Shown: one piece after another, positions 1 to 28,955 of the stretch | Layout: each line of letters begins with the position of its first letter | How positions within the stretch are numbered: position 1 is the first letter of the stretch | Notes under the pieces: model-generated | Seen by the model: the letters and a program-made list of their open reading frames with translations, nothing else | Told to the model about the DNA's origin: nothing | Databases searched by the model: none | Source: Candidatus Omnitrophota bacterium | GTDB lineage: Bacteria; Omnitrophota; Gorgyraeia; 2-01-FULL-45-10 | Length of the DNA: 64,000 nt | NCBI GenBank assembly: GCA_030695905.1 | Contig: JAUYOL010000043.1 | Location: forward strand, 128,998-192,997 | Reading direction: 5' to 3' | Program-made: the position numbers and the translations under genes

Positions 1-251
1 TAACTGTATAATCCCGGATCGCCTGAAACAAGGACGGCTATCCTCTCTTTATCTTTATTCTTTTTTATATATGAGACCGCTTTTTTAAAATGCCCTTCGA
101 GCCGAATCTTTTTTTTATTCCGATACAAAAAAAGTGATAACAGGCGCTCTGCTCCAATCAGGCAATCCGCTCTTTTTATCTCTTTTCTTGCCACGGGCAA
201 TAAATAGTCGATTGCGCCCGGCCCCACTCCGATTATATATACTTTGTTCAT
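1..251 (-). CDS. cbiE: Precorrin-6Y C5,15-methyltransferase subunit CbiE, N-terminal part (gene continues beyond window start)
   Basis: Reverse-complement translation of bases 1-251 gives MNKVYIIGVGPGAIDYLLPVARKEI...VLVSGDPGLYS, typical of the CbiE/CobL tetrapyrrole methylase N-terminus. Its ATG overlaps the cbiD stop in an ATGA arrangement. Confidence 0.6.
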   Translation of the reverse strand, partial: MNKVYIIGVGPGAIDYLLPVARKEIKRADCLIGAERLLSLFLYRNKKKIRLEGHFKKAVSYIKKNKDKERIAVLVSGDPGLYS

Positions 252-1339
252 TTCTTTATTCTTTTTTTTGGATACACTGACAACGCCTTCCCGTGCAGGG
301 AAAGCAGTATGCAACTAACAGAAAGCTGATCATCTACAAATTCATTTATCGCATCCACTGTTCTTTTTGCAATCATATCGAAAACCTGTGTAAGATTATA
401 TTTCATCAATATATCGATAGTGGCTTCTGCACAGGCCTGCTCCATTATATCTTCTAAGATCGGTTTTTTCGCGCCGCAAAGCCTGGCATATCTTGCAATT
501 GTTTTAATGCGATGATCTCCAAATTTGATATTGGTATCAAGCTGGCCATTAGCAACCTTTACCAATTTACCGATATGGCCTATAAGAAGGACTTTATTTA
601 TATTCTTTTTTGCACACTCGGAGAGCATAAACCCGATGTGGTCGCCTATCTTGACCACTGAATCCGGTTTAAGCCCAAGAACTTCTTTGCAAAACTTTTC
701 TCCCACATATCCCAGGATCAGGGTAGCATTTTTATATCCTGCGGCCTTCAAAACATCGAGCTGAAGGGATAAAGATTTCTTGTAAGCGTCCGTTGATTTA
801 GGTTCGACTATGCCCGTAGTGCCGATGATGGAAATGCCGCCTTCTATGCCAAGCCGCCCGTTAAAAGTATGCCTGGCCATCTTCCTTCCCTGCGGGACAC
901 TTATTATTACTTTTATCCCCTTATGCTGTTTCATAAACCGGAGCGAGGCTAAGCAGGGCTTGGTCTCTTTAACAATCATCTGCCTTGGCACTGGATTAAT
1001 CGCATATTCGCCGACGCTTACCGCAAGACCCGGCTTGGTAACTACTCCCACGCCCTCTGCGCCTGTTATTAAAATCCCTTTCTTATCGCAATATTTCACT
1101 TTTGCATATATCCTGGCGCCGTCAGTTACATCAGGGTCATCGCCCGCGTCTTTAACTACCGCGCACCGGGCGAAATCTCTCCCTATCTTTTGGTCGATAA
1201 CCCTTAGATTAAGATGTACGCCCTTAGGGGTTTCTACGTCGACACTTTTTACCACTCTTTTATTGATGAGCATAATACCGGCGGCTTTCGCAGCAGCCTG
1301 GGCACAAGTGCCTGTAGTAAATCCTTTTCTAAGATTCAT
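248..1339 (-). CDS. cbiD: Cobalt-precorrin-5B C1-methyltransferase CbiD
   Basis: 363 aa with the N-terminal GFTTGTCAQAAAKAA motif and overall CbiD-like sequence, inside a cbi operon. Confidence 0.85.
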   Translation of the reverse strand: MNLRKGFTTGTCAQAAAKAAGIMLINKRVVKSVDVETPKGVHLNLRVIDQKIGRDFARCAVVKDAGDDPDVTDGARIYAKVKYCDKKGILITGAEGVGVVTKPGLAVSVGEYAINPVPRQMIVKETKPCLASLRFMKQHKGIKVIISVPQGRKMARHTFNGRLGIEGGISIIGTTGIVEPKSTDAYKKSLSLQLDVLKAAGYKNATLILGYVGEKFCKEVLGLKPDSVVKIGDHIGFMLSECAKKNINKVLLIGHIGKLVKVANGQLDTNIKFGDHRIKTIARYARLCGAKKPILEDIMEQACAEATIDILMKYNLTQVFDMIAKRTVDAINEFVDDQLSVSCILLSLHGKALSVYPKKRIKK

Positions 1340-2172
1340 TTGGATAATATGTTTTTAATCTCTTCCCGCGCCTCGCCTATAGTAAGCGGGAGGCCGTCAA
1401 AATTAATCGCATCGTCCCTTCTTAAGGTCTCGAATAGCTGCCCAATGCGCGGCAATCTCAATTTAGCGTCCCTTATGGCATCGGCATGTGAGAAGACTTC
1501 TTCGGGATCACCATCAAGCACGACCGTTCCTTTATTTAATATAACTACGCGGTCAATAAACACAGGCACCAGATCCACAGAGTGCGTGGTCATGATCATG
1601 GTTATTCCTTTTTCTTTGTTCAATTTTTTTAGTAGCTGCATAATAGAATTAACCCCCATCGGGTCCAGGCACGAGGTCGGCTCATCCAATAACATCACCT
1701 CGGGACCCATGGCTAAAACGCCGGCCAAGCAGATCTTTTTCTTTTCGCCAAAACTTAAATTATGTATAGGTTTTTCGGCAAATGCCGGCATGCCTACAGC
1801 ATCAAGCGCGTGCCCTATTCTTTTGCAGACTTCGTCTTTTTTAAGCCCCATATTCGTCGGACCATAGGCGATATCTTCACCTACTGTGGAAGCAAATAGC
1901 TGGTCATCCGGATTCTGAAACATGGTACAGACTTTGCTGAACAGGATATTCCTGTTGCTAGCCCTGACGTTCTCTCCCTCTAAATAAATTTCACCTTTTG
2001 CAGTTTTTAAGAGGCCGTTGAGTATTTTTAATAGCGTCGTTTTGCCGGAGCCATTGGCGCCTAATATACCCAAAAACTCGCCCTTTTTGATCGAGAGGTC
2101 GATACCCTGTAAAGCAGGCAAGCCGTCAGGATAGCTGAAGTGTAGATTTTTAGTTTCTAAAATGTTGGCCAT
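1336..2172 (-). CDS. cbiO: Cobalt ECF/ABC transporter ATP-binding protein CbiO
   Basis: Walker A GANGSGKTT, ABC signature and Walker B LLDEPTS; located next to cbiQ and cbiMN. Confidence 0.85.
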   Translation of the reverse strand: MANILETKNLHFSYPDGLPALQGIDLSIKKGEFLGILGANGSGKTTLLKILNGLLKTAKGEIYLEGENVRASNRNILFSKVCTMFQNPDDQLFASTVGEDIAYGPTNMGLKKDEVCKRIGHALDAVGMPAFAEKPIHNLSFGEKKKICLAGVLAMGPEVMLLDEPTSCLDPMGVNSIMQLLKKLNKEKGITMIMTTHSVDLVPVFIDRVVILNKGTVVLDGDPEEVFSHADAIRDAKLRLPRIGQLFETLRRDDAINFDGLPLTIGEAREEIKNILSK

Positions 2173-2181
2173 AAACTACCT

Positions 2182-2964
2182 CTAATAAAGTAATATATTT
2201 AATGCCAAAAGCGACGTTAATATTGTAATGAATATGATAACCGCGACAGCATCTTTAATTTTAAAACCTTCTTCCCAAACGATATTCTGCGTCGTTCCGT
2301 TATATCCGCGCAGCACCATAGATTCATAAACCGCTATAGAACGGTCATATGTCCTGATAACGGTTGACCCAATCAATTCGCCAAAAGATTTTAAACTTCG
2401 CGCTAAGCCGCTATACCCAAGGCGAACTCGTTGCGCATCTCTAATAGTTAGCGCATCTTCCAGTAAAACAAATATATAGCGGTAAGTAAGCATGGCTACC
2501 TCGATCCAGGTATCAGGCACTTTAAACCACCGGGCTGCGTTAAGCAGCCTATTTACAGGCGTAGTCATGGACAAGAATACGATTAAAGATACGGCCCCGA
2601 GTGCCTTAGCCACGATTAAAAAACCCTGCATCAGGGGCATGGCAAAAAAGAAAACCTGTATAAGAAAAATCGTACCGGCTATGCTTAAGGGAGTGGCTAA
2701 TCTCCATAGAATAATTTTTACCGGAATCCTGATGCCTAAAAGGAAAACTACGGATAAACAAAGCGCGGTTAGCGGCGCGTAAAACTGGCGTGATGAGATT
2801 ACTATAATTATCGCCGCGGCCACATAAAGCATCTTTACTCTGGCATCCGCTTCCGTCAAATAGTTTTTCTTCTGTGCAAAAGAATCACTAAATATATCAG
2901 CGCGCATTGTCAGTCCTTTTTTCAACGAAAAGTTGACGCCAATAAAAACCCAAAACAAATCCAC
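2182..2964 (-). CDS. cbiQ: Cobalt ECF transporter transmembrane (T) component CbiQ; true start probably the internal Met near 2910
   Basis: Polytopic membrane protein between cbiO and cbiMN. The track ORF overlaps cbiMN by 68 nt, and the internal MRADIFSD start reduces that overlap. Confidence 0.75.
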   Translation of the reverse strand: MDLFWVFIGVNFSLKKGLTMRADIFSDSFAQKKNYLTEADARVKMLYVAAAIIIVISSRQFYAPLTALCLSVVFLLGIRIPVKIILWRLATPLSIAGTIFLIQVFFFAMPLMQGFLIVAKALGAVSLIVFLSMTTPVNRLLNAARWFKVPDTWIEVAMLTYRYIFVLLEDALTIRDAQRVRLGYSGLARSLKSFGELIGSTVIRTYDRSIAVYESMVLRGYNGTTQNIVWEEGFKIKDAVAVIIFITILTSLLALNILLY

Positions 2965-3934
2965 CCGCTATTCCTGCTAAAAGAAAAACAAAAAGCAATA
3001 AATCGCCCTGGTCGGTATTGATAAAAGGCGTCCAGGCGGCCCTTCCATGTTCTTTGGCAACCTTCTCTACCACGCTCTCATCTACGCCGCCCCACTTAGT
3101 TTCTTGCGCAAGCGCAAGGTGGCTATTTGCGGACAAAAGTAATGATATCAACAGAATGCCAACGATCTTCGCCCCGGTTTGCGTGATATGTTTTACATTC
3201 TTTTTTATCACTCCCAGGGAAATTAAAATATCCGGCCTTCTTTTGGCTACAAAAACTATCATACCCCCGGTCAAGAACCCCTCAAGTATACCCAGGGGGA
3301 GTTGAGTAGGAATAAATGCGGTAAGTATAGCGCAAAAAAGAGGGAACATCGGTTTCGTTCCATGAAGAGCCGAGGCTAATTCAAATGAAGTTATAGTATA
3401 GGTGGCCCAATCAGCCAATAGCCCGGCTATAAACCCAGAAATAAATAAAGAAACCCTAAATTTTCTTAATATCTTAAATGCGGCGAAAGCGGCAAAAGAG
3501 CCGGCTATGCCCATAGATACGATATCCGCGCCCCAGGTAGTTATCCCGCCATGTGCCAAAAATAGGGCCTGGATAAGAAGCGCGATAGAAGTTATAAATA
3601 TGCTCATGATCGGCCCGATTAAAATCGCCGATATGCCTGTTCCCGCAGGATGGGAACAGGTCCCTGCGGTTGGTACCGGTACCGGCATACATGAGATAAC
3701 AAAAATAAGCGCTCCCATCATGCCTAAAAGAGGTTTAAAGCTTGGGATCATTTTTGATTTCTTTTTTATATCAACAATACCTTTTATGAGGAAGGGAATC
3801 GCTGCCAGGCACCAAACAGTTGCCCATTTAAGAGGCAGAATCCCTTCTGAAATATGCATTGCCCAGGCCGGACGTGTAAATACGAATAAATACCCAATGG
3901 CAATTAAAACTAAGACCGATATTATTTTACGCAT
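2897..3934 (-). CDS. cbiMN: Cobalt transporter CbiM-CbiN fusion protein
   Basis: N-terminal CbiM-like sequence (signal sequence, HISEG motif, multiple TM segments). The C-terminal roughly 90 aa match CbiN (KWGGVDE...AWTPFI...GDLLLF..LAGIAGGFVLGFYW). 345 aa is too long for CbiM alone. Confidence 0.8.
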   Translation of the reverse strand: MRKIISVLVLIAIGYLFVFTRPAWAMHISEGILPLKWATVWCLAAIPFLIKGIVDIKKKSKMIPSFKPLLGMMGALIFVISCMPVPVPTAGTCSHPAGTGISAILIGPIMSIFITSIALLIQALFLAHGGITTWGADIVSMGIAGSFAAFAAFKILRKFRVSLFISGFIAGLLADWATYTITSFELASALHGTKPMFPLFCAILTAFIPTQLPLGILEGFLTGGMIVFVAKRRPDILISLGVIKKNVKHITQTGAKIVGILLISLLLSANSHLALAQETKWGGVDESVVEKVAKEHGRAAWTPFINTDQGDLLLFVFLLAGIAGGFVLGFYWRQLFVEKRTDNAR

Positions 3935-3935
3935 C

Positions 3936-4568
3936 TTACTCCTTCTCTCTTTTGGCTATCTTTAACAACGCATTAACGCAGGCCGCGGCTGCGCTGGATC
4001 CTCCATACCTGCTCCGATTGGTAATATACGGGATCTTTAAAGTACGTAATTTTTTCTTGGACTCTTTGGCTCCCACAAATCCTACGGGCAGCCCTATTAT
4101 CAAGGAAGGTTCTGCTCTTCCTTTACTGACCATGTCGCAAACTTCGAATAACGCAGTCGGGGCATTGCCTATAACCACGATCCCGCCGTTAATCGATTTA
4201 CAGGCTTTTCTCATGGCCAATATGGAGCGGGTGATATTCAACCGGGAAGCCTGCTTTGCGACACCCTTGTTATCGATAAAACAGATAACCCTGCCTCCGA
4301 AACCGGATAATATTTTTTTATTTATACCGGCTTTGACCATGTTTGCGTCCGCAACAATATTCTTTCCCTTCTTTATCGCTGTCACGGCGGCCCGTATCGC
4401 TTTTGGGTGGAAGAGAATGTCTTTTGCGTAATTAAGGTCACTCGTAGCGTGGATCACTCTAGCCGTGACCTCTTTCTGGGGTCGCGCTAATTTTACATCC
4501 GCCAAATACTTGTCGACTATCCGGAAGCTTTTTAATTCAATCTCTTTAGGGCTGGTGATTATCTGCAC
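3936..4568 (-). CDS. cbiC: Cobalt-precorrin-8 methylmutase CbiC
   Basis: 210 aa with the VIGNAPTALFEV motif typical of CbiC/CobH. Confidence 0.85.
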   Translation of the reverse strand: MQIITSPKEIELKSFRIVDKYLADVKLARPQKEVTARVIHATSDLNYAKDILFHPKAIRAAVTAIKKGKNIVADANMVKAGINKKILSGFGGRVICFIDNKGVAKQASRLNITRSILAMRKACKSINGGIVVIGNAPTALFEVCDMVSKGRAEPSLIIGLPVGFVGAKESKKKLRTLKIPYITNRSRYGGSSAAAACVNALLKIAKREKE

Positions 4569-5185
4569 TATGCAAGGGTCTCCTCTATTATATCCGCAAC
4601 AATATCGGCGATTCTTATATCCTCGCCCAGGTTTTTAGTATATATGAATTTGGTTTTAGGATATTTAGTTTTTTCTTTTTTGATTAAACGGGGAATATCC
4701 CGGGTTACATGGTTGCCGTTAAAAAGGAAAAAAGGGATTATGATCAGCGTTTGACAACCCCGCGCTATCAGATTTTTTATGCTCTGTGCCAGGTCGGGCC
4801 TGAAAGATTGAAGATAGGCGGGGACTATGGTGTTCACCCCCGTCTTCTGCCTGATCGCCCTGACGGTCCTATCCAGGCTGGCATTCGCCTTTTTTAATTT
4901 ACTTCCGTGACTAAGCACTATGACGCCTTTCTTCCCGCTTTGCAACACTCGCCTCCGATATTTACTCTTACTGATCAAATTAAATATATCGTCTGTAACT
5001 TTTCTTTTATGGATCCAATTACAGGATTCGCAGGACCATATGCCCTTCTTGTATTTAGATGAATATACATGGTTACCTTTCTTTTCATCCAGACACGGAT
5101 AAAACGGACAATAGCAGAATGTGCAATCTTCCAACCCTGTATGGCACGGAAAAAACTTACAAGCCTTGTTTAATCTTTTAACCAT
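4568..5185 (-). CDS. cbiX: Sirohydrochlorin cobaltochelatase CbiX (short form) with an N-terminal cysteine-rich small domain
   Basis: C-terminal half is a CbiX-like chelatase fold (VLSHGS...). The N-terminal approximately 60 aa carry CKFFPCH..CTFCYCPFYPC..CESC, a cysteine-rich small domain often fused to CbiX. Confidence 0.7.
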   Translation of the reverse strand: MVKRLNKACKFFPCHTGLEDCTFCYCPFYPCLDEKKGNHVYSSKYKKGIWSCESCNWIHKRKVTDDIFNLISKSKYRRRVLQSGKKGVIVLSHGSKLKKANASLDRTVRAIRQKTGVNTIVPAYLQSFRPDLAQSIKNLIARGCQTLIIIPFFLFNGNHVTRDIPRLIKKEKTKYPKTKFIYTKNLGEDIRIADIVADIIEETLA

Positions 5186-6623
5186 GGCTTACCCCGTTGG
5201 GAAGCCCATTATTTCTAACGGGGTTCATTTTAAATTGTCTGCAACGATCGATAAAATTTTTAGCAAATTCCCTATTGGCGGCAAAATGCAGATGCGCATA
5301 GCTGGCCAATACGTTTCTTCCTATCAAGCCGTCATAAAACACATTATTTTTATCTTTTATTATTTTATAGGCAAAAGGCAGGTCCTTGGGGACATCCGTA
5401 AGACGCGACCAGTGAAACATATGAGCCCTGGACCTGTCGCCTTGTTTACCTAATATATTATCTTTAATAACCCGGACATTCACATAGCCCATCCTATGGA
5501 GCCTGTCACCCATGCTCACCGAACACTTGAATACACCGACCATAGAAAATATTCTCTTTTTGAAATCCATAATACTCTCAACCAGGTACATCAATCCGCC
5601 GCATTCGGCATAAATGGGCAGCCCTGATTCTGCTTTATGATAAATCGACCACCTGAGGCTCTTATTCTTCGATAGGCCGGAAGCAAAAATCTCCGGGAAT
5701 CCGCCTCCTATATATAAACCATCAACACCTTTCGGTAGCTCCCTGTCTTTTAAGGGACTGAATGCGACTATATCTGCCCCCAAGTGACTTAATATATCCA
5801 GGTTATCCTGATAATAGAAATTAAAGGCCGCATCCTTTGCAATGGCTATCCTCACGCGGCTTTTAAGCGGTTCTTTTTTAAATATTACCTCTTTTGCGCA
5901 TGAAATCGACTTTGCCTGCTGTCCTATCTTAAGCAGTCTTGTTAAATTTATATTGGCCTCGACGAGTTTCGATAGCTTTTGGCAAAAACCATGTTGCAGT
6001 TTCTTCTCCTCAAGAGGGACCAGCCCTAAGTGCCTTTCGGATAATTTTAGATTAGCGTCTCTGGGCAAATAACCAAGTACCGATATTCCCGCCTTTTTCT
6101 CAATAGCCGCTTTTATATAATTATAATGATTTATACTCGCTATATTATTCAAAATAATACCCGCTATGTTTACATTTTTATCAAATTTCTTATAGCCCAA
6201 GGCTGTGGCTGCGGCGCTTCTCGATAAAGAGCGCGCATCTAATACAAGGATAACCGGACAATTAAGTATCTTCGCCAAATGAGCAGTTGAACCAAGTTCG
6301 GTATCTTTTAAGCCGTCGTATAAGCCCATGACGCCTTCTATGACAGAAAGGTCGGCATCTTCGGCCCGCCTTTTAAATAACTCTATAATTGTGTTTTTAG
6401 AGAGCAGCCAGCTATCGAGATTTCCACACATCTTACCGGAAGCCTCGGAATGATACGTAGGATCGATATAATCGGGACCGGCCTTGAAAGCCTGCACATT
6501 CACGCCCCTCTTCTTCAAGGCTGAAATTATCCCCAGGGTTAAGGTTGTCTTCCCTACCCCGCTATGAGTACCCGCAATGATAATTCTCGGTAGATTCATC
6601 TTCCCAGCGCGCTTCCTGCGCAA
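5178..6623 (-). CDS. cbiA: Cobyrinate a,c-diamide synthase CbiA
   Basis: 481 aa with an N-terminal P-loop (AGTHSGVGKTT) and a C-terminal glutamine amidotransferase domain; positioned in the cbi operon. Confidence 0.85.
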   Translation of the reverse strand: MRRKRAGKMNLPRIIIAGTHSGVGKTTLTLGIISALKKRGVNVQAFKAGPDYIDPTYHSEASGKMCGNLDSWLLSKNTIIELFKRRAEDADLSVIEGVMGLYDGLKDTELGSTAHLAKILNCPVILVLDARSLSRSAAATALGYKKFDKNVNIAGIILNNIASINHYNYIKAAIEKKAGISVLGYLPRDANLKLSERHLGLVPLEEKKLQHGFCQKLSKLVEANINLTRLLKIGQQAKSISCAKEVIFKKEPLKSRVRIAIAKDAAFNFYYQDNLDILSHLGADIVAFSPLKDRELPKGVDGLYIGGGFPEIFASGLSKNKSLRWSIYHKAESGLPIYAECGGLMYLVESIMDFKKRIFSMVGVFKCSVSMGDRLHRMGYVNVRVIKDNILGKQGDRSRAHMFHWSRLTDVPKDLPFAYKIIKDKNNVFYDGLIGRNVLASYAHLHFAANREFAKNFIDRCRQFKMNPVRNNGLPNGVSHG

Positions 6624-7549
6624 GCCATTAAAAGCACTCCGACAATTAAAAATAATGCCGATGAAATATAAGAGATTTTTATGCTATCTTTAATATGGCC
6701 GATCTCCAATGCATTGATATTATCGCCTATAAATGGTTTTTCAACGGGCCTGGAGTTATAAAAATTTAAACCGCCTAATCGGACTCCCAGCGCCCCTGCA
6801 ACAGCGGCCTCAGGTATTCCGCTGTTCAGGCTGGGATTCTTCCTGCCGTCCCTTCTGGCTATCTTCCATGAATTTAACATGTTCTTGCCCGCAAATAGAC
6901 TGGCAAGCGGCAAGAACAGTATAGACAGTCTTGCCGGTATGAAATTAACTAAAGTATCTATCTTTGCACAGGCCCAGCCGAAATCCTTATATTTGTCGTT
7001 TTTGTACCCGACCATTGAGTCTAAAGTGTTTACCGCCTTATATGCTAATGCTAAAGGAGCTCCGCCAATAAATGCATAAAAAAGAGGAGAGATTACGCCA
7101 TCCACAATATTCTCGGCTACCGTCTCAACCGTAGCGCGGACAACCTCTTGATCTTCCAAATTATCCGTATCTCTCCCGACAATTAAACTTAATTTTATCC
7201 GCGCTGAAATTATATCTTTTTTCTCCAGTGAATGATAAACATCCGCACTTTCTATATCCAGGTCTTTGGCAGCCAGCGAACTATAGATAATAAGGATAGA
7301 AATTATCGAGCCCAAGTATCTGTTAACGGAATATGCTCCCCTGATAATAATAAAGCCGAGGCACCAGGTCACACCAATGACCGATATGGCAAGAATGACC
7401 CCTCCTATCCGCTCATTCCTGAATACTTTCCTTAAAACAGGCTCCAGCTTTTTTATCATCCAGCCTATGCCTTTTACAGGATGCGGGAGCCATCGTGGAT
7501 CACCCAAAATCAAATCTAAAATATAGGCAAGCGCGATTTCAATGGCCAC
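6596..7549 (-). CDS. cbiB: Adenosylcobinamide-phosphate synthase CbiB/CobD
   Basis: 317-aa membrane protein with the characteristic N-terminus LDLILGDPRWLPHPV. Confidence 0.85.
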   Translation of the reverse strand: MAIEIALAYILDLILGDPRWLPHPVKGIGWMIKKLEPVLRKVFRNERIGGVILAISVIGVTWCLGFIIIRGAYSVNRYLGSIISILIIYSSLAAKDLDIESADVYHSLEKKDIISARIKLSLIVGRDTDNLEDQEVVRATVETVAENIVDGVISPLFYAFIGGAPLALAYKAVNTLDSMVGYKNDKYKDFGWACAKIDTLVNFIPARLSILFLPLASLFAGKNMLNSWKIARRDGRKNPSLNSGIPEAAVAGALGVRLGGLNFYNSRPVEKPFIGDNINALEIGHIKDSIKISYISSALFLIVGVLLMACAGSALGR

Positions 7550-7553
7550 CAGA

Positions 7554-9065
7554 TCAAACCTTTACTATATCGTATAGTGATTTCATATTAATATTTCCCC
7601 GTAACAGTTGGGCGAGCTTATCAAATTCCCCATCCGGATCAAAATAAATATTTTGAGGCAATTTCTGCCAACCCTTACTTTGCCGTATTGTATTTAAAAA
7701 TTCTCTTCTGAAAACGTCCGCATCAAACAAGCCATGAATATATGTCCCTAAAACACGGTTGTCTTTACGGCGGAAGCCGTCAAAGCATTTTATTTTCTTA
7801 CCGTTACGCTCTAAAATCTCGAAAAACGGCCTGGGGCTCCCTTTACAGCCGGAAAGACCGTGATGGATCTCATATCCGGAGATTTCTGCTCCTGAAGACA
7901 TATCCTTTGCTTTTACCCTGCTTAAAACCTTATCTTTAGCAAGGTAAGTATTAACCGGTAATAATCCCAGTCCCTCTATATTCCTGCCATTTGATTCCAA
8001 ATGATGCTTATCGGATATATTTTTGCCCAGCATCTGGTAACCGCCGCATATTCCCAGTAAAAATGCCGAAATGTTGGAACTGATGTGCGAAATGATCTTT
8101 TCCGCGAGACCGCTCACTTTAAGATAACGCAGATCTGAAATGGTATTCTTTGTGCCTGGTATGATAATTAAGTCCGGGGCATTCAGTTGTGCCGAATTTT
8201 TTACATACCGCAGCATCACATCGCCTTCTTTTTCTATAGCGTCGAAATCAGTAAAATTTGATATGTGCGGCAGCTGGATCACGGCTATATCCATATATTT
8301 ACCATTTGTACCGCGTCTGCCCCCCGGCAGCCTTTCGTCAAGAGAAACGGAGTCTTCCTCCGGTATCCTTATATCTTTAAAATACGGGACAACTCCCAGG
8401 ACTTTAATGCCAAGACGCCTTTCTAAAAATTTTACGGCCGGCAATAGAAGCGATTTATCGCCGCGGAATTTATTGATAATGATACCTTTAATCATTTTTC
8501 TCTCTTCTTTATTCAATAATTCTAATGTGCCTACAAGCCAGGCAAAGACGCCCCCTTTATCGATATCGCCTACTAAGATTACAGGCGCGTTGGCATGTCT
8601 GGCCATCTTCATGTTTACAAGATCGTGTCTCTTTAAATTTATTTCTGCAGGGCTGCCGGCTCCTTCGATAACAACAATATCATACGCGCGACTAAGTCTC
8701 GCAAAAGATTGCTTTACCACATTTTTAAACTTCTTTTTATGCTTTATATACTCCGCGGCCTTCATATTCCCATAGGGCTTACCTCTGACGATGATTTGTG
8801 AACCAATATCGCTTGTAGGCTTGATCAGGATCGGATTCATATCTACGCTGGGTTCTATCCGGCAGGCCGCAGCCTGGCTTGCCTGGGCGCGGCCGATCTC
8901 GCCCTCTTCTTTTGTTACAAAAGAATTTAACGCCATATTCTGGGCTTTAAAGGGGCATACCCTGTAGCCATCCTGTAAAAATATCCTGCACAGGGCGCTG
9001 ACTATAACGCTTTTTCCTACCCCAGAGCCCGTTCCGCAGATTTGCAGCGTTTTTGCTCTCTTCAT
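7554..9065 (-). CDS. cobQ: Cobyric acid synthase CobQ/CbiP
   Basis: 503 aa with an N-terminal GTGSGVGKS P-loop and a C-terminal GATase domain. Confidence 0.85.
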   Translation of the reverse strand: MKRAKTLQICGTGSGVGKSVIVSALCRIFLQDGYRVCPFKAQNMALNSFVTKEEGEIGRAQASQAAACRIEPSVDMNPILIKPTSDIGSQIIVRGKPYGNMKAAEYIKHKKKFKNVVKQSFARLSRAYDIVVIEGAGSPAEINLKRHDLVNMKMARHANAPVILVGDIDKGGVFAWLVGTLELLNKEERKMIKGIIINKFRGDKSLLLPAVKFLERRLGIKVLGVVPYFKDIRIPEEDSVSLDERLPGGRRGTNGKYMDIAVIQLPHISNFTDFDAIEKEGDVMLRYVKNSAQLNAPDLIIIPGTKNTISDLRYLKVSGLAEKIISHISSNISAFLLGICGGYQMLGKNISDKHHLESNGRNIEGLGLLPVNTYLAKDKVLSRVKAKDMSSGAEISGYEIHHGLSGCKGSPRPFFEILERNGKKIKCFDGFRRKDNRVLGTYIHGLFDADVFRREFLNTIRQSKGWQKLPQNIYFDPDGEFDKLAQLLRGNINMKSLYDIVKV

Positions 9066-10129
9066 CGAATGGCCTTTTTGATACTGCTTATAAGACGATT
9101 GTTATCCATTCTTCTTCTTACCGCCACGCGGAAGAATCTGCCGTTTAAGCCCCTGAAGTTGCCGCAGTCTCTGATATAAATGCCATCTCGCAATAACCGC
9201 CGTTTTAATCCTCCGCAATCACGGATAGACGCATCCTGAAGCTTGCATAAAATAAAATTCGCGGATGACGGGTAGGCCTTCAGCCCTTTTATATTGTTTA
9301 ATGCTTCTGACATGTACCGCCGTTCTTCGGAAATAAATACAGGTGTTTTTTTCATATAGGCTCTATCCTTGATGGCTTCTTTTCCCGCAAGCTGTGCCAG
9401 GATATTCACGTTCCAGGGGTATTGAAAACCGGCTATTTTCTTTATAATATTTTTATGAGCTACGGCATATCCCAGCCTCAAGCCCGGCATGGCAAAGAAT
9501 TTGGTCAGAGATCTTAATACTATTAAATATCCGCTCTTTACCGCCTCTTTTACGATACCTGATGCCGCCGCTTCTTTTGTAAATTCGATAAATGCCTCGT
9601 CGAGTATCAGCGTGGTTTTACGTTTTTTGCACAAGTACGCAATGCGCAGGACTTCATCGGCATTCAGCAAAGAGCCCGTAGGATTATTCGGGTTGCACAG
9701 GAAAAGGGCGCAGCATTGTTTTAATGCGTCGGCTATTTTTGCCGGATCAACTTTAAAATTATCTCTTTCATCTGTATTTAAAAAAACTATTTTCGAATTA
9801 TTTGCCTTTAACGCAAGTTCATACTCGCTGAATGTCGGCACAGGGATAATGGCCCTTTTTATTTTAATCGCCCTGGGAATAAGGTGGATCAACTCTATAG
9901 AACCATTCCCAATAACAACATTCTCCGGCTTTACATTATTAAGCAGGGCCAGCCTGTTTTTCAATCTTTCCGATGAGGGGTCAGGATAGGACAATACGGC
10001 GTCTGTGCTTTTGGAAATAATGCTTGCTACCCTCCCAGGCAGACCCATAGGATTTATGTTGACACTAAAATCGAGTATATTCGATCTTAAACAGTCGCCG
10101 CCGTGATTTCCATGTGTCATATATTGCAA
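9062..10129 (-). CDS. cobD: L-threonine-O-3-phosphate decarboxylase CobD (class I/II aminotransferase fold)
   Basis: PLP aminotransferase-like protein (SLTKFFAMPGLRLGY) sitting between cobQ and cobS. Confidence 0.75.
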   Translation of the reverse strand: MQYMTHGNHGGDCLRSNILDFSVNINPMGLPGRVASIISKSTDAVLSYPDPSSERLKNRLALLNNVKPENVVIGNGSIELIHLIPRAIKIKRAIIPVPTFSEYELALKANNSKIVFLNTDERDNFKVDPAKIADALKQCCALFLCNPNNPTGSLLNADEVLRIAYLCKKRKTTLILDEAFIEFTKEAAASGIVKEAVKSGYLIVLRSLTKFFAMPGLRLGYAVAHKNIIKKIAGFQYPWNVNILAQLAGKEAIKDRAYMKKTPVFISEERRYMSEALNNIKGLKAYPSSANFILCKLQDASIRDCGGLKRRLLRDGIYIRDCGNFRGLNGRFFRVAVRRRMDNNRLISSIKKAIR

Positions 10130-10863
10130 TTGACCAATATCAAGCAGAACAAAAGTGCCGAGACCTCGGCAATTTCGTTTGCCGCGCCGATTGTGTCCCC
10201 TGTCATCCCGCCGATTTTTCTTTTCGCATATTGTATAAATAAAAATATAGTAACTGATAAAAGAGCCGTCAGGACAATGCCTTTTATGCCCATTAAAAAC
10301 CAGTTTAAAATCAGTGTAAATACGGCTCCTGCAAATATATCGGCCCTCTTCGCGTATTTTACAAAATATTTTGCCTTACCTTCGTCACGCGCATACTTGG
10401 ACACAGAGCACGCAAATGCCTGGAGCCATCTGGCGGATACGGCCGCCGCCAACAAAATCTTCCATAAGTCTTCCGGATGGATACTCGCTATTATCGCAAA
10501 TTTAAAGAGCAAAAGCAGCGCAATACCTGCCGCGCCCATCGTTCCAATGCGGCTGTCGCGCATTATTTTTAAAATATCCTCTTTAGAGCGCTTCCCGTAA
10601 AAACCATCGCAGGTATCCGCAAAACCGTCCAGATGGATTGCGCCGGTTATCACTACCCACACAATAAGAATCAGGGCGCTTCCGACTAAAGGCGGAAAAG
10701 ATGTTGAAATAAAAGCTATGCCTGCAAGAAGGGTGCCCAATAAGAGGCCTATGACAGGAAAATAAACGAGGGATCTGCCAAAATCCCCGTCTTCTATCTT
10801 TCCTTTAATGCTAACGGGAAGGATGGTCAGAAACTGCAAGGCTATCAGAAATCGCGTCTTCAT
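10117..10863 (-). CDS. cobS: Adenosylcobinamide-GDP ribazoletransferase (cobalamin synthase) CobS
   Basis: 248-aa polytopic membrane protein with the CobS-like N-terminus ALQFLTILP. Confidence 0.85.
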   Translation of the reverse strand: MKTRFLIALQFLTILPVSIKGKIEDGDFGRSLVYFPVIGLLLGTLLAGIAFISTSFPPLVGSALILIVWVVITGAIHLDGFADTCDGFYGKRSKEDILKIMRDSRIGTMGAAGIALLLLFKFAIIASIHPEDLWKILLAAAVSARWLQAFACSVSKYARDEGKAKYFVKYAKRADIFAGAVFTLILNWFLMGIKGIVLTALLSVTIFLFIQYAKRKIGGMTGDTIGAANEIAEVSALLFCLILVNCNI

Positions 10864-11915
10864 TTTTTTTCGGAAACACCGGCATTCTCAAAAGTCGCCA
10901 TCTCATTCAATATCTTGGTGCCGGCCTCGATAATATTCATAGCCAGTGCGGCACCGGTCCCTTCCCCCAAACGTAAGCTTAAATCAAGGATGGGCTTAAG
11001 CCCTAAAAATTCAAGCGCTTTTTTATGCCCCTGCTCTACAGAGCAATGCGCGGCTATCATATAGTCTTTTGTCTTAGGCTCTATTTTATATGCTATCAAT
11101 GCGGCCGCTCCGGAAATAAATCCATCTATAACCACGGGTATCCTGTGCTCCGCGGCAGCCAGTATTACTCCCGCCAATCCGCCTATCTCAAATCCGCCCA
11201 CTTTAGATAAGATATCTATGCCATCTTCCGGATTTGGCTTATTTACTTTTAGAGCCTCTTTTATAGCGTTGATTTTACTCTTTAGGGTTTTATCATCGAC
11301 CCCGGTACCCCTGCCTGTCACATCTTCCACATCCCTGCCGGTAATAACAGAGACTATGGCGCTTGAGGGAGTAGTATTGCCGATCCCCATGTCTCCCGTT
11401 CCAACAATATCGATTCCATTTATCAGCTCTGCTTTGAACGCCTCTATACCATTTTCAATGGATTTAACAGCCTCGTCTTTTGACATCGCGGGACCTTTTG
11501 TCATATTCTTTGTACCGCGATTTACCTTTTTTATAATGAGAGCCGGATCATTTTTAAGATCGCAAGCAACTCCCATATCGATGACAACAACTCTCGCGCC
11601 CGCGTGCCTGGCGAGCACGTTTATGCCCGCTGTGCCATTTAGAAAATTATATACCATCTGAGGGGTAACTTCCTTGGGAAACGCGCTAACATTATTTTCA
11701 ACAACGCCATGATCCCCGGCCATCGTAAATATAACCTTGCGTGCCAGCTTCGGGTTTCTGGTTTTGGTTATTTCCACAACCTGCTTGGCCAGATCTTCCA
11801 GCCTTCCAAGGCTTCCTTGGGGCTTCGTCAGATTATCTAATCTCTTCTGTGTTTCTTCAGATAACGAATCATCAATTTTCTTAATTCTCGATATTGTTTC
11901 ATTCAATAATTTCAT
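10860..11915 (-). CDS. cobT: Nicotinate-nucleotide--dimethylbenzimidazole phosphoribosyltransferase CobT
   Basis: 351 aa with a CobT-like fold, including GEGTGAALA near the C-terminus. Confidence 0.85.
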   Translation of the reverse strand: MKLLNETISRIKKIDDSLSEETQKRLDNLTKPQGSLGRLEDLAKQVVEITKTRNPKLARKVIFTMAGDHGVVENNVSAFPKEVTPQMVYNFLNGTAGINVLARHAGARVVVIDMGVACDLKNDPALIIKKVNRGTKNMTKGPAMSKDEAVKSIENGIEAFKAELINGIDIVGTGDMGIGNTTPSSAIVSVITGRDVEDVTGRGTGVDDKTLKSKINAIKEALKVNKPNPEDGIDILSKVGGFEIGGLAGVILAAAEHRIPVVIDGFISGAAALIAYKIEPKTKDYMIAAHCSVEQGHKKALEFLGLKPILDLSLRLGEGTGAALAMNIIEAGTKILNEMATFENAGVSEKK

Positions 11916-11923
11916 ATGCCCGC

Positions 11924-12445
11924 CTATTTTATGCTTACCGGTATCCCTGCATGCATCATAATAACCTCATCGGCCCGTGCCGCTATTACCTGATTCGCCA
12001 TTCCGATCAGGTCGCGGAATCTCCTCGATAGCGCGTCGCCGGGTACTATGCCTTCTCCCACCTCGTTTGATACTATGATAACGATGCCTGCTTTAGCTTT
12101 GGATACACTGTCGCAGAGCTTTTTTATTCTTTTTTCTATCGCGCTATCATTCATATTGGTCATTAAAAGATTAGAGATCCATAACCCGAGACAATCGATT
12201 AGCGCTACGCGATATACCGGCTTCAGCCCGTCAAGGATATCGCATATGTTTACAGGCTCCTCAATGAGATCCCAGCCCTTCGGCCTTGAAGTCTTATGCA
12301 GCCGGATTCTATTCTTCATCTCCTCATCTGACGCGGTAGCAGTCGCGATAAATACAGTCTTTTTATTAATAGTTTTTGCAAGCGCAACAGCATGCTGGCT
12401 CTTACCGCTTCGCGCACCGCCTAAAATAAAGGTCATATTACTCAT
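11924..12445 (-). CDS. cobU: Adenosylcobinamide kinase / adenosylcobinamide-phosphate guanylyltransferase CobU
   Basis: 173 aa with P-loop GGARSGKS. Confidence 0.85.
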   Translation of the reverse strand: MSNMTFILGGARSGKSQHAVALAKTINKKTVFIATATASDEEMKNRIRLHKTSRPKGWDLIEEPVNICDILDGLKPVYRVALIDCLGLWISNLLMTNMNDSAIEKRIKKLCDSVSKAKAGIVIIVSNEVGEGIVPGDALSRRFRDLIGMANQVIAARADEVIMMHAGIPVSIK

Positions 12446-13043
12446 CGCTGCCCCTAAGATGCCCGATGTCGTTGAATTTTATCAATCTGAGTTTTCCTCT
12501 TTTATGTTCTACCATGGTAACGCTCGCAGGCGATGGGACACAGCTCCAAAAGTTCCCGCTCCTTGATATACCGTTCACAAATATACCTATCACTCCGCCG
12601 TGGCAAACAACGGCAATCGTCTTATCGGGATTAGATTTTACTATCTTCCGCAGGGCATTCCCGACCCTCTTTTTAAAAACACCCATAGGCTCTGCGTTAG
12701 GAATTCTATTTTTGAAAGAATTTTTTATCCATTTCTTGTAGATAATCGTATATCTTTCCATGATGTCTTGATGGCGCAACCCTTCAAGAACGCCGAAATT
12801 AATTTCACGCAACCCCCGGTCTATAATTATTTTTCTTTCTTTAAAAAGTATGCGAGCGGTTTGTGTAGCGCGTTTTTGATTACTGCAATATATTTTATCG
12901 AACCTATCGATATCGAGCCCTTTGGATAGCAGCTTAACCTGAGACTTGCCTTCATTGCTTAATCCTATATCTTTGTGGCCGCAGTAACGCTTTTGTTTAT
13001 TCCACCTGGTTACGCCATGACGTATCAAAATCAACCTTGTCAT
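12438..13043 (-). CDS. cobC: Alpha-ribazole phosphatase CobC (histidine phosphatase family)
   Basis: The N-terminus contains the RHG motif (LILIRHGVTRWN); located in the cob operon. Confidence 0.8.
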   Translation of the reverse strand: MTRLILIRHGVTRWNKQKRYCGHKDIGLSNEGKSQVKLLSKGLDIDRFDKIYCSNQKRATQTARILFKERKIIIDRGLREINFGVLEGLRHQDIMERYTIIYKKWIKNSFKNRIPNAEPMGVFKKRVGNALRKIVKSNPDKTIAVVCHGGVIGIFVNGISRSGNFWSCVPSPASVTMVEHKRGKLRLIKFNDIGHLRGSDE

Positions 13044-13067: not shown

Positions 13068-14447
13068 TTATTTTATTGCGAGATCAAGCGTCGTAAGCGT
13101 GCCTTTATCCCATTTGTCCCACAAATACGCGTCTTCTTTATTATCGGCGATTAATCTAAACGCGTATTTGACCTGCTCTTCATAGAGTCCGCAAAACGCG
13201 CCTCTTGAAGCCATCGAGCCGTTTATAGCCCACGCTTCGGCAGGGCACGGCGAACCGCAAAAATGACGGATAGCGCAGCGAGAACATGGCTCAATATCCT
13301 CAACGCGCCTGCCTGTAACAGATTTGAATGGCGCGGTTTTTAGGACGTTTCGGACATTATCCCTGAAGATATTGCCGCCCATAAATTTCTTTATCCCTAT
13401 AAATTCGCTGCAAGGAAACATGTCTCCTCTGCTCGAAATCGCAAAAAAACATCTGCCGCCCCCGCATGGCGAAATATCACACATAAGCCGCCGTGCCGTG
13501 GGCGCGAGAATGCTTATCAAGATATTCGCGAAATTAGCGATTACCAGTTTGCGGCCGGTCTGCTGATAAAGCTCGTAAGCGCGATCCAGGGCTTTCAGGT
13601 AAAATTTCGCCGATTCCTCGTCCGACGGTTTTTGTCTGCGTCCGCCGGGAAGAGTACATCGGACAGGGTTAAGCATGCAAGTGGGCACTTCCAGGCCATG
13701 AAAAAACTCGACTATCTTTGCCTGGTAGGGCATATTTTCTTTCGTTACGGTGCATATGACCGAATAATTATGATACCCTTTAAGCCTGTCTATCGCCTGT
13801 AAAACTTTTTGGGAAACGCCTTTACCGCTCCAGTCCCGGCGTAATCTGTCGGCTACACCATCTACGTGGCCGTCCAGAGAAAGGCCTATGCTTATGCCTC
13901 TTGAAGTCAAAAATTCTGTCGTTTCAGCGTCCAAAAGCGTTCCATTGGTTTGAACACCAAAACGAAAGTCCTTCTTAAATTTGTCTATCGCGGTAAAAAC
14001 GGCTTCTTTATTAAGCAGGGGTTCCGCCCCATGAAAAATAATCTGAGGCATCTGGCCCTTTAATAAAGTGGATTTAAAATAATCCTTAAGAATCCCCAGG
14101 GCTTTCAAAATCTTTTGGACGGGCATATTTGAGCCGCTTTTACGCAGATCTGCGGGAATGTAGCAATAAGAACAATTCAAATTACATTTGTCTGTAGGAT
14201 TAAAATATACGGCTGAGGGATTTAATCCAAACCGTAAGGTGTTCATTTCGGCATAAAAAGCCTTCGCCTTCTTGCGGTATCCGTTTAAAACAGAAGAATT
14301 TTCCAGCGCGGCGGATAGCTTATCTTTTCTTACCAATGCCCAAAATGCCGTATCGGCGGAAACTAAACAAGCATAGTCCCTATGGCCGATGTCTATGGGC
14401 TGAATAGTATCTCCCTCGCCCATATTAAAATTAGTCTGAGTCTTCAT
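13068..14447 (-). CDS. Radical SAM / SPASM-domain enzyme with an approximately 95-aa N-terminal extension; function unknown. Candidate peptide maturase or AhbD/NirJ-like tetrapyrrole-modifying enzyme
   Basis: The CNLNCSYC radical SAM motif starts near residue 97. The C-terminal SPASM/twitch cysteine motifs are CGGGRC...C and CSRCAIRHFCGSPC. It is the first large cistron after the B12 riboswitch and is preceded by a 38-aa peptide ORF. Confidence 0.8.
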   Translation of the reverse strand: MKTQTNFNMGEGDTIQPIDIGHRDYACLVSADTAFWALVRKDKLSAALENSSVLNGYRKKAKAFYAEMNTLRFGLNPSAVYFNPTDKCNLNCSYCYIPADLRKSGSNMPVQKILKALGILKDYFKSTLLKGQMPQIIFHGAEPLLNKEAVFTAIDKFKKDFRFGVQTNGTLLDAETTEFLTSRGISIGLSLDGHVDGVADRLRRDWSGKGVSQKVLQAIDRLKGYHNYSVICTVTKENMPYQAKIVEFFHGLEVPTCMLNPVRCTLPGGRRQKPSDEESAKFYLKALDRAYELYQQTGRKLVIANFANILISILAPTARRLMCDISPCGGGRCFFAISSRGDMFPCSEFIGIKKFMGGNIFRDNVRNVLKTAPFKSVTGRRVEDIEPCSRCAIRHFCGSPCPAEAWAINGSMASRGAFCGLYEEQVKYAFRLIADNKEDAYLWDKWDKGTLTTLDLAIK

Positions 14448-14466
14448 GGTGTTTTATCTTTGTGAA

Positions 14467-14583
14467 TTAAGACTTGCTCCCTTTATTCAATAACACATAA
14501 TGCGACAAACCTGTGCCGTTAGCTTTACATTTCTTACGGCTGGCTATAATGCTTTTCTTTATTTTGCTCGCCTTTTTCTCCAT
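14467..14583 (-). CDS. 38-aa Lys-rich peptide (MEKKASKIKKSIIASRKKCKANGTGLSHYVLLNKGSKS); candidate precursor peptide or partner of the downstream rSAM-SPASM enzyme. Below the 60-aa ORF-track cutoff
   Basis: Minus-strand ATG preceded by AAGGAGG with 8-nt spacing. A TAA stop lies about 20 nt upstream of the rSAM start. It sits between the riboswitch terminator and the rSAM gene. Confidence 0.45.
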   Translation of the reverse strand: MEKKASKIKKSIIASRKKCKANGTGLSHYVLLNKGSKS

Positions 14584-14616
14584 ATCATTCACCTCCTTTA
14601 TATTTTATGGTTCCAT

Positions 14617-14656
14617 GAAATAAAAAGCCCCGCGACTGAAAAACAGTGCGGGGTAT
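14617..14656 (-). terminator. Riboswitch expression-platform intrinsic terminator (GC-rich hairpin plus U-tract)
   Basis: The minus strand reads CCCCGCACTG-TTTTT-CAGTCGCGGGG followed by CTTTTTATTT, immediately downstream of the cobalamin aptamer. Confidence 0.6.
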
Positions 14657-14757
14657 GTTCCCTGGTTTTACAAAACCCGTATACAGCGGCATTATTCACG
14701 ATGCCTTGATATATAGGTAGGTCTTCTGACTGCCCAGCCCTTTTTAACTGCCTTCCC

Positions 14758-14908
14758 ATTCCAGAAATAATAGAATAGTGGCTTTATTGTTAAAAAGGCT
14801 CCTTTTCTAAAAACAAGAAAAGGGCTGAGCTACAGCGGCGGGACCGTTTCCGTTTTCCCGCCAGATTCGCTCAAACAAATCTAAGCGGCGGGACTGGAAT
14901 TCCCTTTT
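14758..14908 (-). promoter_or_regulatory. Cobalamin (AdoCbl) riboswitch aptamer
   Basis: Minus strand contains GGCGGGAAAACGGAAACGGTCCCGCCGCTGTAGC (GGGAA...CCCGCC.CTGTA core) and the B12 box AAGCCACTA...GGGAAGGCAG, located 5' of the cob operon. Confidence 0.8.
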
Positions 14909-14957
14909 AAGCTCTCTCGAGCACCTATACAGTTCAATGTGTCAAAGAATAAATTAG

Positions 14958-14985
14958 ATTATAGCGCATTGCTCTAAAACGTCAA
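14958..14985 (-). promoter_or_regulatory. Sigma70-type promoter for the riboswitch-controlled cob transcript
   Basis: Minus strand has TTGACG, a 16-nt spacer, then TATAAT, about 45 nt upstream of the aptamer. Confidence 0.55.
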
Positions 14986-14997
14986 GTAAAATTTTTC

Positions 14998-15753
14998 CTA
15001 CGCCTTTTCGATCTCCTTCAAGAATTCTACGGATTTGAGGCGGCGTTCGATGTGGTAATCTAAGAATTTTCGCAGGATAGACTCGAGCTCTTTGCCGACA
15101 ACGTTTGCGACCTTGATACGCTCAACTTTCTCAAACGGAAGTTCGCGTATATGCTCGATGAACTTAACGGTTCCCGCCATTATCGGCAGCGCGTTTTTGT
15201 CTTTATCTATGCAGGTTTTACATATAAGCCCTCCATGCGCGACGCTGAATTTAGCTCCCGGTTCGGGCTTGCTGCCGCAATACGCGCAAGCATTAAGCGT
15301 GGGCATAAGGCCTATAAGACCCAGCAATTTGATCTCGAATATTCTTGCGACTCTTTTGGCGCTTGCCTGGCTCGACAAAAGCGTTAAACTATTCAGGAGA
15401 AGCCCGAAGATTTCTTGGCTTTTTTCTCCCAGGCCCGTTACGGAATCAAGAAGCTCTATTATGTAATTAGCGTACGCGAGACGCTCCAAAGATTGCCTTA
15501 CCGGATAGAAAAATTCAAGCAGGTCGCACTGGGATATCGTAAAGACATCCGCCTTTTTTCTCTCATAGAACACTATCTCATCATGCGCGAATACCTCAAG
15601 GCTTCCCCCGCCATACTGCGCGTGCGGACCGCGCACACCACGCACTATCCCTTTTATCTTGCCGAAATCTTTTGTAAATAAAGTGACTATCAGGCTGGTT
15701 TCTCTTAGGTCCTGCCGCCTTATTACTATGGCTTCAGATTTCTGGATAGGCAT
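14998..15753 (-). CDS. recO: DNA repair protein RecO
   Basis: 251 aa with an N-terminal OB-fold region and a C4 zinc motif (CAYCG...CKTC). Confidence 0.8.
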   Translation of the reverse strand: MPIQKSEAIVIRRQDLRETSLIVTLFTKDFGKIKGIVRGVRGPHAQYGGGSLEVFAHDEIVFYERKKADVFTISQCDLLEFFYPVRQSLERLAYANYIIELLDSVTGLGEKSQEIFGLLLNSLTLLSSQASAKRVARIFEIKLLGLIGLMPTLNACAYCGSKPEPGAKFSVAHGGLICKTCIDKDKNALPIMAGTVKFIEHIRELPFEKVERIKVANVVGKELESILRKFLDYHIERRLKSVEFLKEIEKA

Positions 15754-28938: not shown

Positions 28939-28955
28939 GCAATTACTTGAAGAAC

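Follow-up and report, generated by a model that had tools for sequence, protein, structure and literature searches.

A riboswitch-controlled CbpA/CbpB peptide and radical SAM enzyme pair at the head of an Omnitrophota cobamide operon

We analysed a 64,000-nucleotide (nt) stretch of a Candidatus Omnitrophota genome (contig JAUYOL010000043.1, positions 128,998 to 192,997; hereafter the window) in which a 38-amino-acid (aa) Lys-rich peptide and a 459-aa radical S-adenosylmethionine (SAM)/SPASM enzyme are encoded between a cobalamin riboswitch and a long run of cobamide genes. The two genes are a member of the known, catalogued and automatically annotated CbpA/CbpB family and are not new. Our reading of the pair, to which we give a probability of about 0.8, is that it forms a module akin to those for peptides that are synthesized by the ribosome and then modified post-translationally (RiPPs), in which CbpB modifies CbpA and the product serves cobamide supply when B12 is scarce. 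The evidence for this reading comes from the identity of both proteins, conservation of the peptide across phyla, and linkage of the pair to B12 regulation and cobamide genes.

The CbpA/CbpB pair and its operon

Both proteins score above the curated NCBIfam cutoffs for this family. The whole enzyme matches TIGR04163 ('rSAM_cobopep, peptide-modifying radical SAM enzyme CbpB') with 699.3 bits (cutoff 375, E 1.6e-210) over model positions 2–428 of 428, and the peptide matches TIGR04164 (cobo_pep, modified peptide precursor CbpA) with 48.7 bits (cutoff 35). The model names rSAM_cobopep and cobo_pep appear to encode 'cobalamin operon peptide'. A 100% identical enzyme from a Candidatus Omnitrophota metagenome-assembled genome (MAG) is present in NCBI under the name CbpB, and GenBank lists the exact 38-aa peptide as MDP3791990.1, 'modified peptide precursor CbpA'. 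An earlier note on this DNA had treated the small open reading frame (ORF) as unannotated and had supposed that no system of this kind was known in a B12 riboswitch or cob operon. Neither statement holds, as the NCBIfam models exist and the public record of the same contig already gives both genes their names, so that the pair cannot be claimed as a novelty. The suggestion in the same note of a RiPP-like precursor with a radical SAM/SPASM maturase is borne out by the two model matches, and every element of the layout that it described, from the riboswitch terminator through the small ORF and the enzyme gene to cobC, was found. The features of the locus, in window positions and all on the minus strand, are as follows.

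14958..14985, minus strand: sigma-70-type promoter, TTGACG-16 nt-TATAAT, called by consensus match only (11/12 positions)
14699..14943, minus strand: cobalamin riboswitch aptamer, RF00174
~14618..14653, minus strand: intrinsic terminator, stem CCCCGCACUG / CAGUCGCGGGG followed by the U-tract CUUUUUAUUU, from sequence and RNA folding
14592..14598, minus strand: Shine-Dalgarno sequence AAGGAGG, read from the sequence
14467..14583, minus strand: cbpA, 38-aa modified-peptide precursor MEKKASKIKKSIIASRKKCKANGTGLSHYVLLNKGSKS (TIGR04164)
14448..14466, minus strand: gap of 19 nt between cbpA and cbpB
13068..14447, minus strand: cbpB, 459-aa radical SAM/SPASM peptide-modifying enzyme (TIGR04163, PF04055, PF13186)
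248..13043, minus strand: 14 co-oriented cobamide genes downstream of cbpB (Pfam and NCBIfam assignments)

The promoter lies directly 5' of the riboswitch, which matches RF00174 over its full length (model 1–189; 61.9 bits, gathering score 31.5, E 6.8e-13); this was a check that the earlier note had proposed. The expression platform consists of a GC-rich terminator hairpin, present in both the minimum free energy and the centroid structures, and its U-tract, located between the aptamer and the cbpA ribosome binding site. With a promoter in front and an intrinsic terminator in the riboswitch, plentiful corrinoid is expected to halt transcription of cbpA, cbpB and the cob genes behind them. The Shine-Dalgarno sequence, which the earlier note had also recognised, lies 8 nt before the cbpA ATG at 14583. 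A 41-aa form of CbpA starting at the in-frame GTG at 14592 was considered and rejected because this GTG overlaps the Shine-Dalgarno sequence and because the 38-aa ATG form, and not the exact 41-aa sequence, is in the public collection. No clear Shine-Dalgarno sequence for cbpB was seen in the 19-nt gap TTCACAAAGATAAAACACC (14448–14466, minus strand), which suggests translational coupling or weak independent initiation of cbpB; a high ratio of peptide to enzyme could be the result.

Downstream of cbpB, the ORFs overlap or are closely packed in the order cobC-cobU-cobT-cobS-cobD-cobQ-cbiB-cbiA-cbiX-cbiC-cbiM-cbiQ-cbiO-cbiD, with cobC belonging to the histidine-phosphatase family (His_Phos_1) and cobD encoding a threonine-phosphate decarboxylase. 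As in the family at large, the pair consists of adjacent genes, both above the curated cutoffs, in a cob operon with a riboswitch, and we see no difference in kind; here the pair opens a long cob operon and follows the riboswitch immediately, whereas in other lineages it stands alone or inside cob/cbi/btu clusters. Two of the downstream ORFs are longer than the models that they match. Small CbiX/CfbA models cover only residues 86–201 of the CbiX-type chelatase (205 aa, 4568–5185, minus strand), leaving about 85 N-terminal residues unexplained, and the CbiM ORF (345 aa, 2897–3934, minus strand) matches CbiM over residues 26–247, with about 100 C-terminal residues beyond the match. These extra residues might represent a fused CbiN or start and stop calls that are off. 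Unrelated to the pair, the recO gene (14998–15753, minus strand) ends about 13 nt upstream of the −35 element of the cbpA promoter, and four tRNA genes occur elsewhere in the window, in the intervals 27674–27744 (plus strand), 28856–29031 (minus strand) and 35765–35838 (minus strand).

Conservation of the peptide and its linkage to B12 across phyla

A scan of one genome per GTDB species detected a CbpB relative in at least 594 species, and the family counts given here are drawn from the best 80 loci of these. The relatives are spread over at least 12 phyla, with the best 80 loci including Omnitrophota, Planctomycetota, Elusimicrobiota, Nitrospirota, Chloroflexota/Dehalococcoidia, Verrucomicrobiota, Kiritimatiellota, Acidobacteriota, Armatimonadota, Bacillota, several deltaproteobacterial lineages and others; the carriers are mostly uncultured lineages, with many probable anaerobes among them. 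All carriers in the scan were MAGs, and the lineages represented include Anaeromyxobacter, Desulfomonile and Acidobacteriaceae/Koribacter-type strains. Identity of CbpB between phyla is 62–82%, which is unusually high for a RiPP maturase.

The peptide is conserved together with the enzyme. A CbpA-like ORF on the same strand, ending no more than 400 nt from cbpB, was detected in 73 of the 75 loci with more than 250 nt of sequence upstream of cbpB, and one further locus carries such an ORF about 600 nt upstream. Conservation of a short ORF directly upstream of the enzyme, which the earlier note had named as a check, is thus confirmed. The peptides share a 20-residue core with the consensus [VI]IAxRKxCxAxG[T/A]GLSHY[IV][LM], with which the core of the window CbpA, IIASRKKCKANGTGLSHYVL, agrees. 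The register of this core is constant across 70 distinct CbpA sequences: R(−7), C(−4), G(0), G(+2), L(+3) and H(+5) are invariant, the V, I, A, K, S and Y positions are 89–99% conserved, and the position flanked by the two glycines holds Thr in 60 sequences, Ala in eight, Val in one and Ile in one. The mean entropy of cbpA codon positions 1, 2 and 3 is 0.54, 0.33 and 1.58 bits, respectively, and the invariant Leu and Arg are each encoded by six different codons. CbpA is a very basic, Lys-rich peptide. Its core is under strong protein-level selection, and the combination of amino-acid conservation with free synonymous change rules out an origin by chance or from constraint on the RNA. On the same grounds we rejected two other views of the small ORF, as no more than a piece of the riboswitch's expression platform and as an upstream ORF with a regulatory function.

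Some copies depart from the standard form of the peptide. In L077 (4753–4950, plus strand), a MAG labelled Rickettsiales, the CbpA ORF contains the whole conserved core twice in tandem, VIAYRSKCDAKGTGLSHYILPEDKKEVVAFRRKCDSKGTGLSHYILPEDK. Four Verrucomicrobia copies (L025, L026, L034 and L058, at about 4585–4717) have a second Cys beside the invariant Cys, RRKCCQAEGTGLSHY; the riboswitches of these loci match the Rfam model at positions 47–167 only and may be a shorter variant of the aptamer.

Linkage to B12 was examined in 52 loci by an Rfam scan at gathering thresholds, with 48 assessable and four having too little upstream sequence. An RF00174 riboswitch lies on the same strand directly upstream of cbpA in 36 of the 48 loci, and further upstream in the same operon in two more. 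Most of the loci without a riboswitch are inside cob clusters, so that a riboswitch and/or nearby cob genes accompany the pair in 44 of 48 loci, and B12 riboswitch linkage across homologues, another proposed check, is upheld. Both were unseen in the available sequence at L016, L017, L020 and L023 only, of which two are contigs of less than 3 kb.

The surroundings of the pair are varied. BLAST searches with the window's own Cob proteins and a few neighbours showed that 43 of the 80 loci have genes of the cob, cbi or btu type no more than 5 kb away. Their orders vary and include cbpAB-cobCUTS-cobD-cobQ, cobTS-cbiB-cobD-x-cbpAB-x-btuFC(D), cobQ-cbiB-cbiA-cbiC-cbpAB-cbiX/cbiMNQO-cbiD and btuCD-cobQ-TonB receptor-cbpAB. 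Other loci are stand-alone units of riboswitch, cbpA and cbpB beside unrelated genes, such as those for a sigma-54 activator, Lon, aconitase, an SSF transporter or a tRNA. The 72 immediate downstream neighbours are heterogeneous and include no recurrent protease, exporter with a peptidase domain or tailoring enzyme of another kind; the ten upstream neighbours examined at stand-alone or uptake-linked loci are unrelated genes or TonB-dependent receptors. A conserved third gene of any of these kinds was therefore rejected. Varied neighbours combined with riboswitch or cob linkage in most loci indicate that CbpAB is a minimal two-gene module of the B12 regulon.

One sub-clade, comprising Omnitrophota, Planctomycetia, Elusimicrobia and Nitrospirae MAGs, has additional genes near the pair. 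An AsnB-like protein of about 310 aa, containing the C-terminal synthetase domain only and with weak similarity to lasso-peptide cyclases, is encoded beside cbpAB in L005–L009 and L011–L013 (e.g. L005, 3831–4769, plus strand), and a Dph6-like PP-loop ATPase of about 220 aa (diphthine-ammonia ligase family) in L005–L008, L010–L013 and L061 (e.g. L005, 6393–7061, plus strand). Some members also have a small radical-SAM-activase-like gene. The AsnB-like and Dph6-like genes are absent from the window; their products could be extra CbpA-tailoring enzymes or unrelated enzymes of cobamide amidation or salvage. Divergent back-to-back cobalamin riboswitches were observed in L040, L043, L051 and L057 (at about 4100–4750), one serving cbpAB and the one on the opposite strand serving divergent genes, such as cbiM/cbiO in L051. 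Other elements near the pair were a thiamine pyrophosphate riboswitch about 60 nt past cbpB (L053, 5159–5256, plus strand), a group II intron fragment just downstream of cbpB (L049, 6388–6493, minus strand) and a 6S RNA adjoining cbpB (L032, 3145–3318, plus strand).

The CbpB enzyme and its possible chemistry

CbpB contains a radical SAM domain (PF04055, 62.3 bits) and a SPASM domain (PF13186, 24.7 bits against a cutoff of 21.5, aa 328–391), preceded by an N-terminal region specific to the family.

14208..14447, minus strand: CbpB N-terminal family-specific domain, aa 1–80, a candidate peptide-binding domain (from conservation)
14163..14186, minus strand: radical SAM cluster motif C88-x3-C92-x2-C95, from the translation and invariant in a 21-sequence alignment
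13191..13481, minus strand: SPASM region with C323, C328, (C333), C346, C388-x2-C391-x5-C397-x3-C401 and C419 (PF13186 and alignment)

Eight of the SPASM-region cysteines (C323, C328, C346, C388, C391, C397, C401 and C419) are invariant in this alignment and C333 is nearly so. The SPASM pattern CX9-15GX4C...CX2CX5CX3C...C fits CbpB, with one extra upstream cysteine, and these residues would suffice for two fully ligated auxiliary clusters. Among solved structures, the best-scoring is the thioether-forming CteB (5wgg, E 1.4e-23), of which residues 101–427 align to CbpB 82–412, and the second is anSME (4k36, E 8e-20), aligned over the whole SPASM domain including the upstream cysteine. In NCBIfam CbpB falls well short of the cutoffs of every other radical SAM/SPASM family, including PapB (NF047865, 139.5 bits, cutoff 340), DynA (124 bits), anSME (TIGR03942, 112.8 bits, cutoff 349), HxsB (112 bits) and the SCIFF maturase (TIGR03974, 109.1 bits, cutoff 425). 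The AhbD, NirJ, anSME, SCIFF, PapB, DynA and cyclophane-maturase families were all rejected as the identity of the enzyme, with scores of 60–140 bits against cutoffs of 310–500, and serve as mechanistic analogies only.

The N-terminal extension, estimated in the earlier note at about 95 aa, measures about 80–87 aa before C88xxxC92xxC95 and contains the conserved motifs DIGHxDY...DTAFW...LRF. Because CbpB 82–412 aligns to CteB 101–427, residues 1–81 occupy the position of the RiPP recognition element (RRE) of CteB, as located in published work (PMC8326336). An AlphaFold2 model of residues 1–95 predicts three strands followed by two helices, with a predicted local distance difference test score of 73–88 over residues 12–70; the winged helix-turn-helix of an RRE has three strands and then three helices. 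In NCBIfam the domain matches the CbpB model alone; none of ten N-terminal domains matched PF05402 or another RRE in Pfam or NCBIfam at E≤10, and a profile search of PDB sequences returned nothing relevant. The position of the domain thus agrees with the idea of an RRE/PqqD-like extension, the sequence searches gave no match and the fold comparison no significant one, and an RRE identity is plausible from position and predicted secondary-structure content.

From these elements a working mechanism can be proposed. When corrinoid is scarce the terminator would remain unformed and cbpA, cbpB and the cob genes would be transcribed. CbpB would then bind CbpA, probably through the VIAxRK segment and its own N-terminal domain, cleave SAM to a 5'-deoxyadenosyl radical, take a hydrogen atom from the CxAxG(T/A)GLSHY core and install one intramolecular modification there. 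The modified peptide would stay in the cell without dedicated removal of a leader, and could function in cobamide assembly, salvage, or cobalt or corrinoid handling under B12 limitation. Action inside the cell is expected of a modified basic peptide with no leader peptidase or exporter, and a role in cobamide supply is suggested by the regulon and the neighbouring genes. Within this scheme it is possible, if rather doubtful, that modified CbpA is an unrecognised accessory factor of cobamide supply, with undescribed chemistry and a role missing from the textbook pathway, such as a Cys/His cobalt or corrinoid chaperone or a peptide-derived cofactor.

For the modification itself, our tentative first choice, held with something short of even confidence, is a thioether in which the invariant Cys is joined, for instance, to the residue five places further along. 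It is preferred because Cys thioethers are what the best-scoring characterised relatives and the enzyme of the nearest structure produce and because CbpA has a Cys-to-Thr spacing of five residues, equal to that of Cys32-Thr37 in SCIFF. This link has been reported for the SCIFF peptides Tte1186a and CteA, with some debate over the assignment (PMC8326336). A C–C or C–O cross-link at the His or Tyr seems unlikely, and an anSME-like oxidation of the Cys, by analogy with that enzyme, more unlikely still.

CbpAB can be compared with several characterised systems. SCIFF (CteA/CteB, Tte1186a/Tte1186) has in common with it an enzyme in which the N-terminal domain is followed by the radical SAM core and then the SPASM domain, and a Cys and Thr five residues apart. 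It differs in that CbpA has one conserved Cys and SCIFF six, CbpB has C323 where CteB has none, and the N-terminal domain of CbpB lacks detectable similarity to the CteB RRE. To our knowledge SCIFF is not B12-linked, and the likeness of CbpB to the SCIFF and PapB maturases is limited to architecture and Cys-Thr spacing. The PQQ (PqqA/PqqD/PqqE) and mycofactocin (MftA/MftB/MftC) systems also have a short conserved precursor beside a radical SAM/SPASM enzyme; unlike the two genes of CbpAB, however, they need an RRE protein encoded on its own and several more genes for tailoring, and neither the PqqE nor the MftC model ranks among the highest NCBIfam matches of CbpB. The sulfatase substrate motif of anSME is C/S-x-P/A-x-R, and the C-x-(A/P) that begins at the invariant Cys of CbpA resembles its start, but the position of the motif Arg is an invariant Gly in CbpA (C-x-A/P-x-G). 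Moreover, anSME has no N-terminal extension, and the partner of CbpB is a 38-aa peptide rather than a sulfatase. AhbD and NirJ have a radical SAM and a SPASM domain and a tetrapyrrole-pathway context, as CbpB does, but no partner peptide.

Competing explanations and significance

Several points weigh against our reading or against parts of it. Our full-text literature search, which covered part of the literature, found no published description or experimental test of the CbpA/CbpB family; it is likewise absent from surveys or reviews that treat radical SAM/SPASM enzymes of RiPPs and from the TIGRFAMs 2013 paper. The scores of CbpB to the characterised maturases are close together and all far below the cutoffs, which makes the chemistry of CbpB a guess, and no significant match of the predicted N-terminal fold to an RRE was found. 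As regards a thioether, the candidate acceptor Thr is replaced by Ala, Val or Ile in 10 of the 70 CbpA sequences. Cys323 of CbpB aligns with an anSME cysteine, which we take to complete auxiliary cluster I, and CteB has none there; retention of this residue means that the substrate Cys may not bind the cluster directly as it does in CteB. Finally, control by the riboswitch fits coping without B12 equally as well as making B12.

Alternatively, CbpA may be consumed in the making of a small-molecule cofactor or ligand, in the way that PqqA gives rise to PQQ and MftA to mycofactocin, with CbpB making a first cross-link and housekeeping enzymes excising part of the GTGLSHY core. Conservation of the core across phyla is typical of cofactor precursors and not of antibiotics, the 62–82% identity of CbpB points the same way, the pair belongs to a cofactor regulon, and ATP-dependent AsnB-like and Dph6-like enzymes flank it in one sub-clade. 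We nevertheless consider this improbable: no further tailoring enzyme, protease or oxidase recurs downstream, many units comprise only the riboswitch, cbpA and cbpB in unrelated surroundings, PQQ and mycofactocin require several dedicated genes, and we know of no gap in cobamide biosynthesis that calls for a building block derived from Cys, Thr, His or Tyr. A function for life without B12, comparable to metE or the B12-independent ribonucleotide reductases that are found under B12 riboswitches, would account for an OFF-switch, which says only that the pair is needed at low B12, and for the many stand-alone units by a sigma-54 activator, Lon, aconitase or an SSF transporter. This is marginally less probable again, as about half of the loci embed the pair among cob/cbi/btu genes in several orders, and some embedded pairs lack a riboswitch of their own and are evidently co-transcribed (cobD-(asnB-like)-cbpAB-...-btuFC, cbiC-cbpAB-cbiX/cbiM, cbpAB-cobCUTS). 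B12-independent isozymes are usually not internal to cob operons, and we are aware of no B12-dependent process that a peptide-maturase pair could replace.

The earlier note offered as an alternative an AhbD/NirJ-like enzyme acting on a corrinoid or tetrapyrrole intermediate, with the peptide as a partner or chaperone; CbpA might also be a scaffold. In favour of this are the tetrapyrrole-acting SPASM enzymes AhbD and NirJ, the corrinoid context of the operon, and the possibility in principle of corrinoid binding by a basic peptide whose Cys and His are invariant. Against it, the AhbD model (TIGR04545) gives 60.3 bits with a cutoff of 500 and ranks 25th, behind families that all modify peptides or proteins. 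CteB and anSME are the nearest solved structures, and peptide and enzyme occur together in 73 of 75 loci, as expected of precursor/maturase pairs, so we regard it as very unlikely. The least likely of these explanations is secretion of the product, whether it scavenges cobalt or corrinoid (cf. methanobactin for copper) or is an antimicrobial released during B12 starvation. A cbiMNQO cobalt transporter, cbiX, btuF/btuC or TonB-dependent receptors adjoin the pair in several lineages, and the invariant Cys and His are possible metal ligands. Set against this, a signal peptide, a double-glycine leader, a peptidase, an ABC exporter and an immunity gene are all missing from the window and none recurs downstream, the potential ligand residues number only two, and a near-invariant core speaks against an antimicrobial arms race.

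The level of conservation of CbpAB is that of PQQ, mycofactocin and SCIFF rather than of antibiotics. PQQ and mycofactocin are peptide-derived cofactor systems with a housekeeping or cofactor rather than an antibiotic context (PMC10114670), and the wide distribution of SCIFF in its clade has been taken as an argument against an antimicrobial role (PMC8326336).

Here we have placed the peptide and enzyme of an Omnitrophota cobamide operon in the CbpAB family, which is apparently an interesting and uncharacterised component of the B12 regulon. The invariant R, C and G-x-G-L-x-H residues of the peptide, the fixed distance from Cys to Thr, an apparent lack of partner genes and the counts of riboswitch linkage provide a comparative basis for experiments. 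If the product of the pair does function in cobamide assembly, salvage, or cobalt or corrinoid handling, CbpAB would be a new component of a pathway that is usually deemed complete, and this would bear on predicting which uncultured bacteria can make B12.

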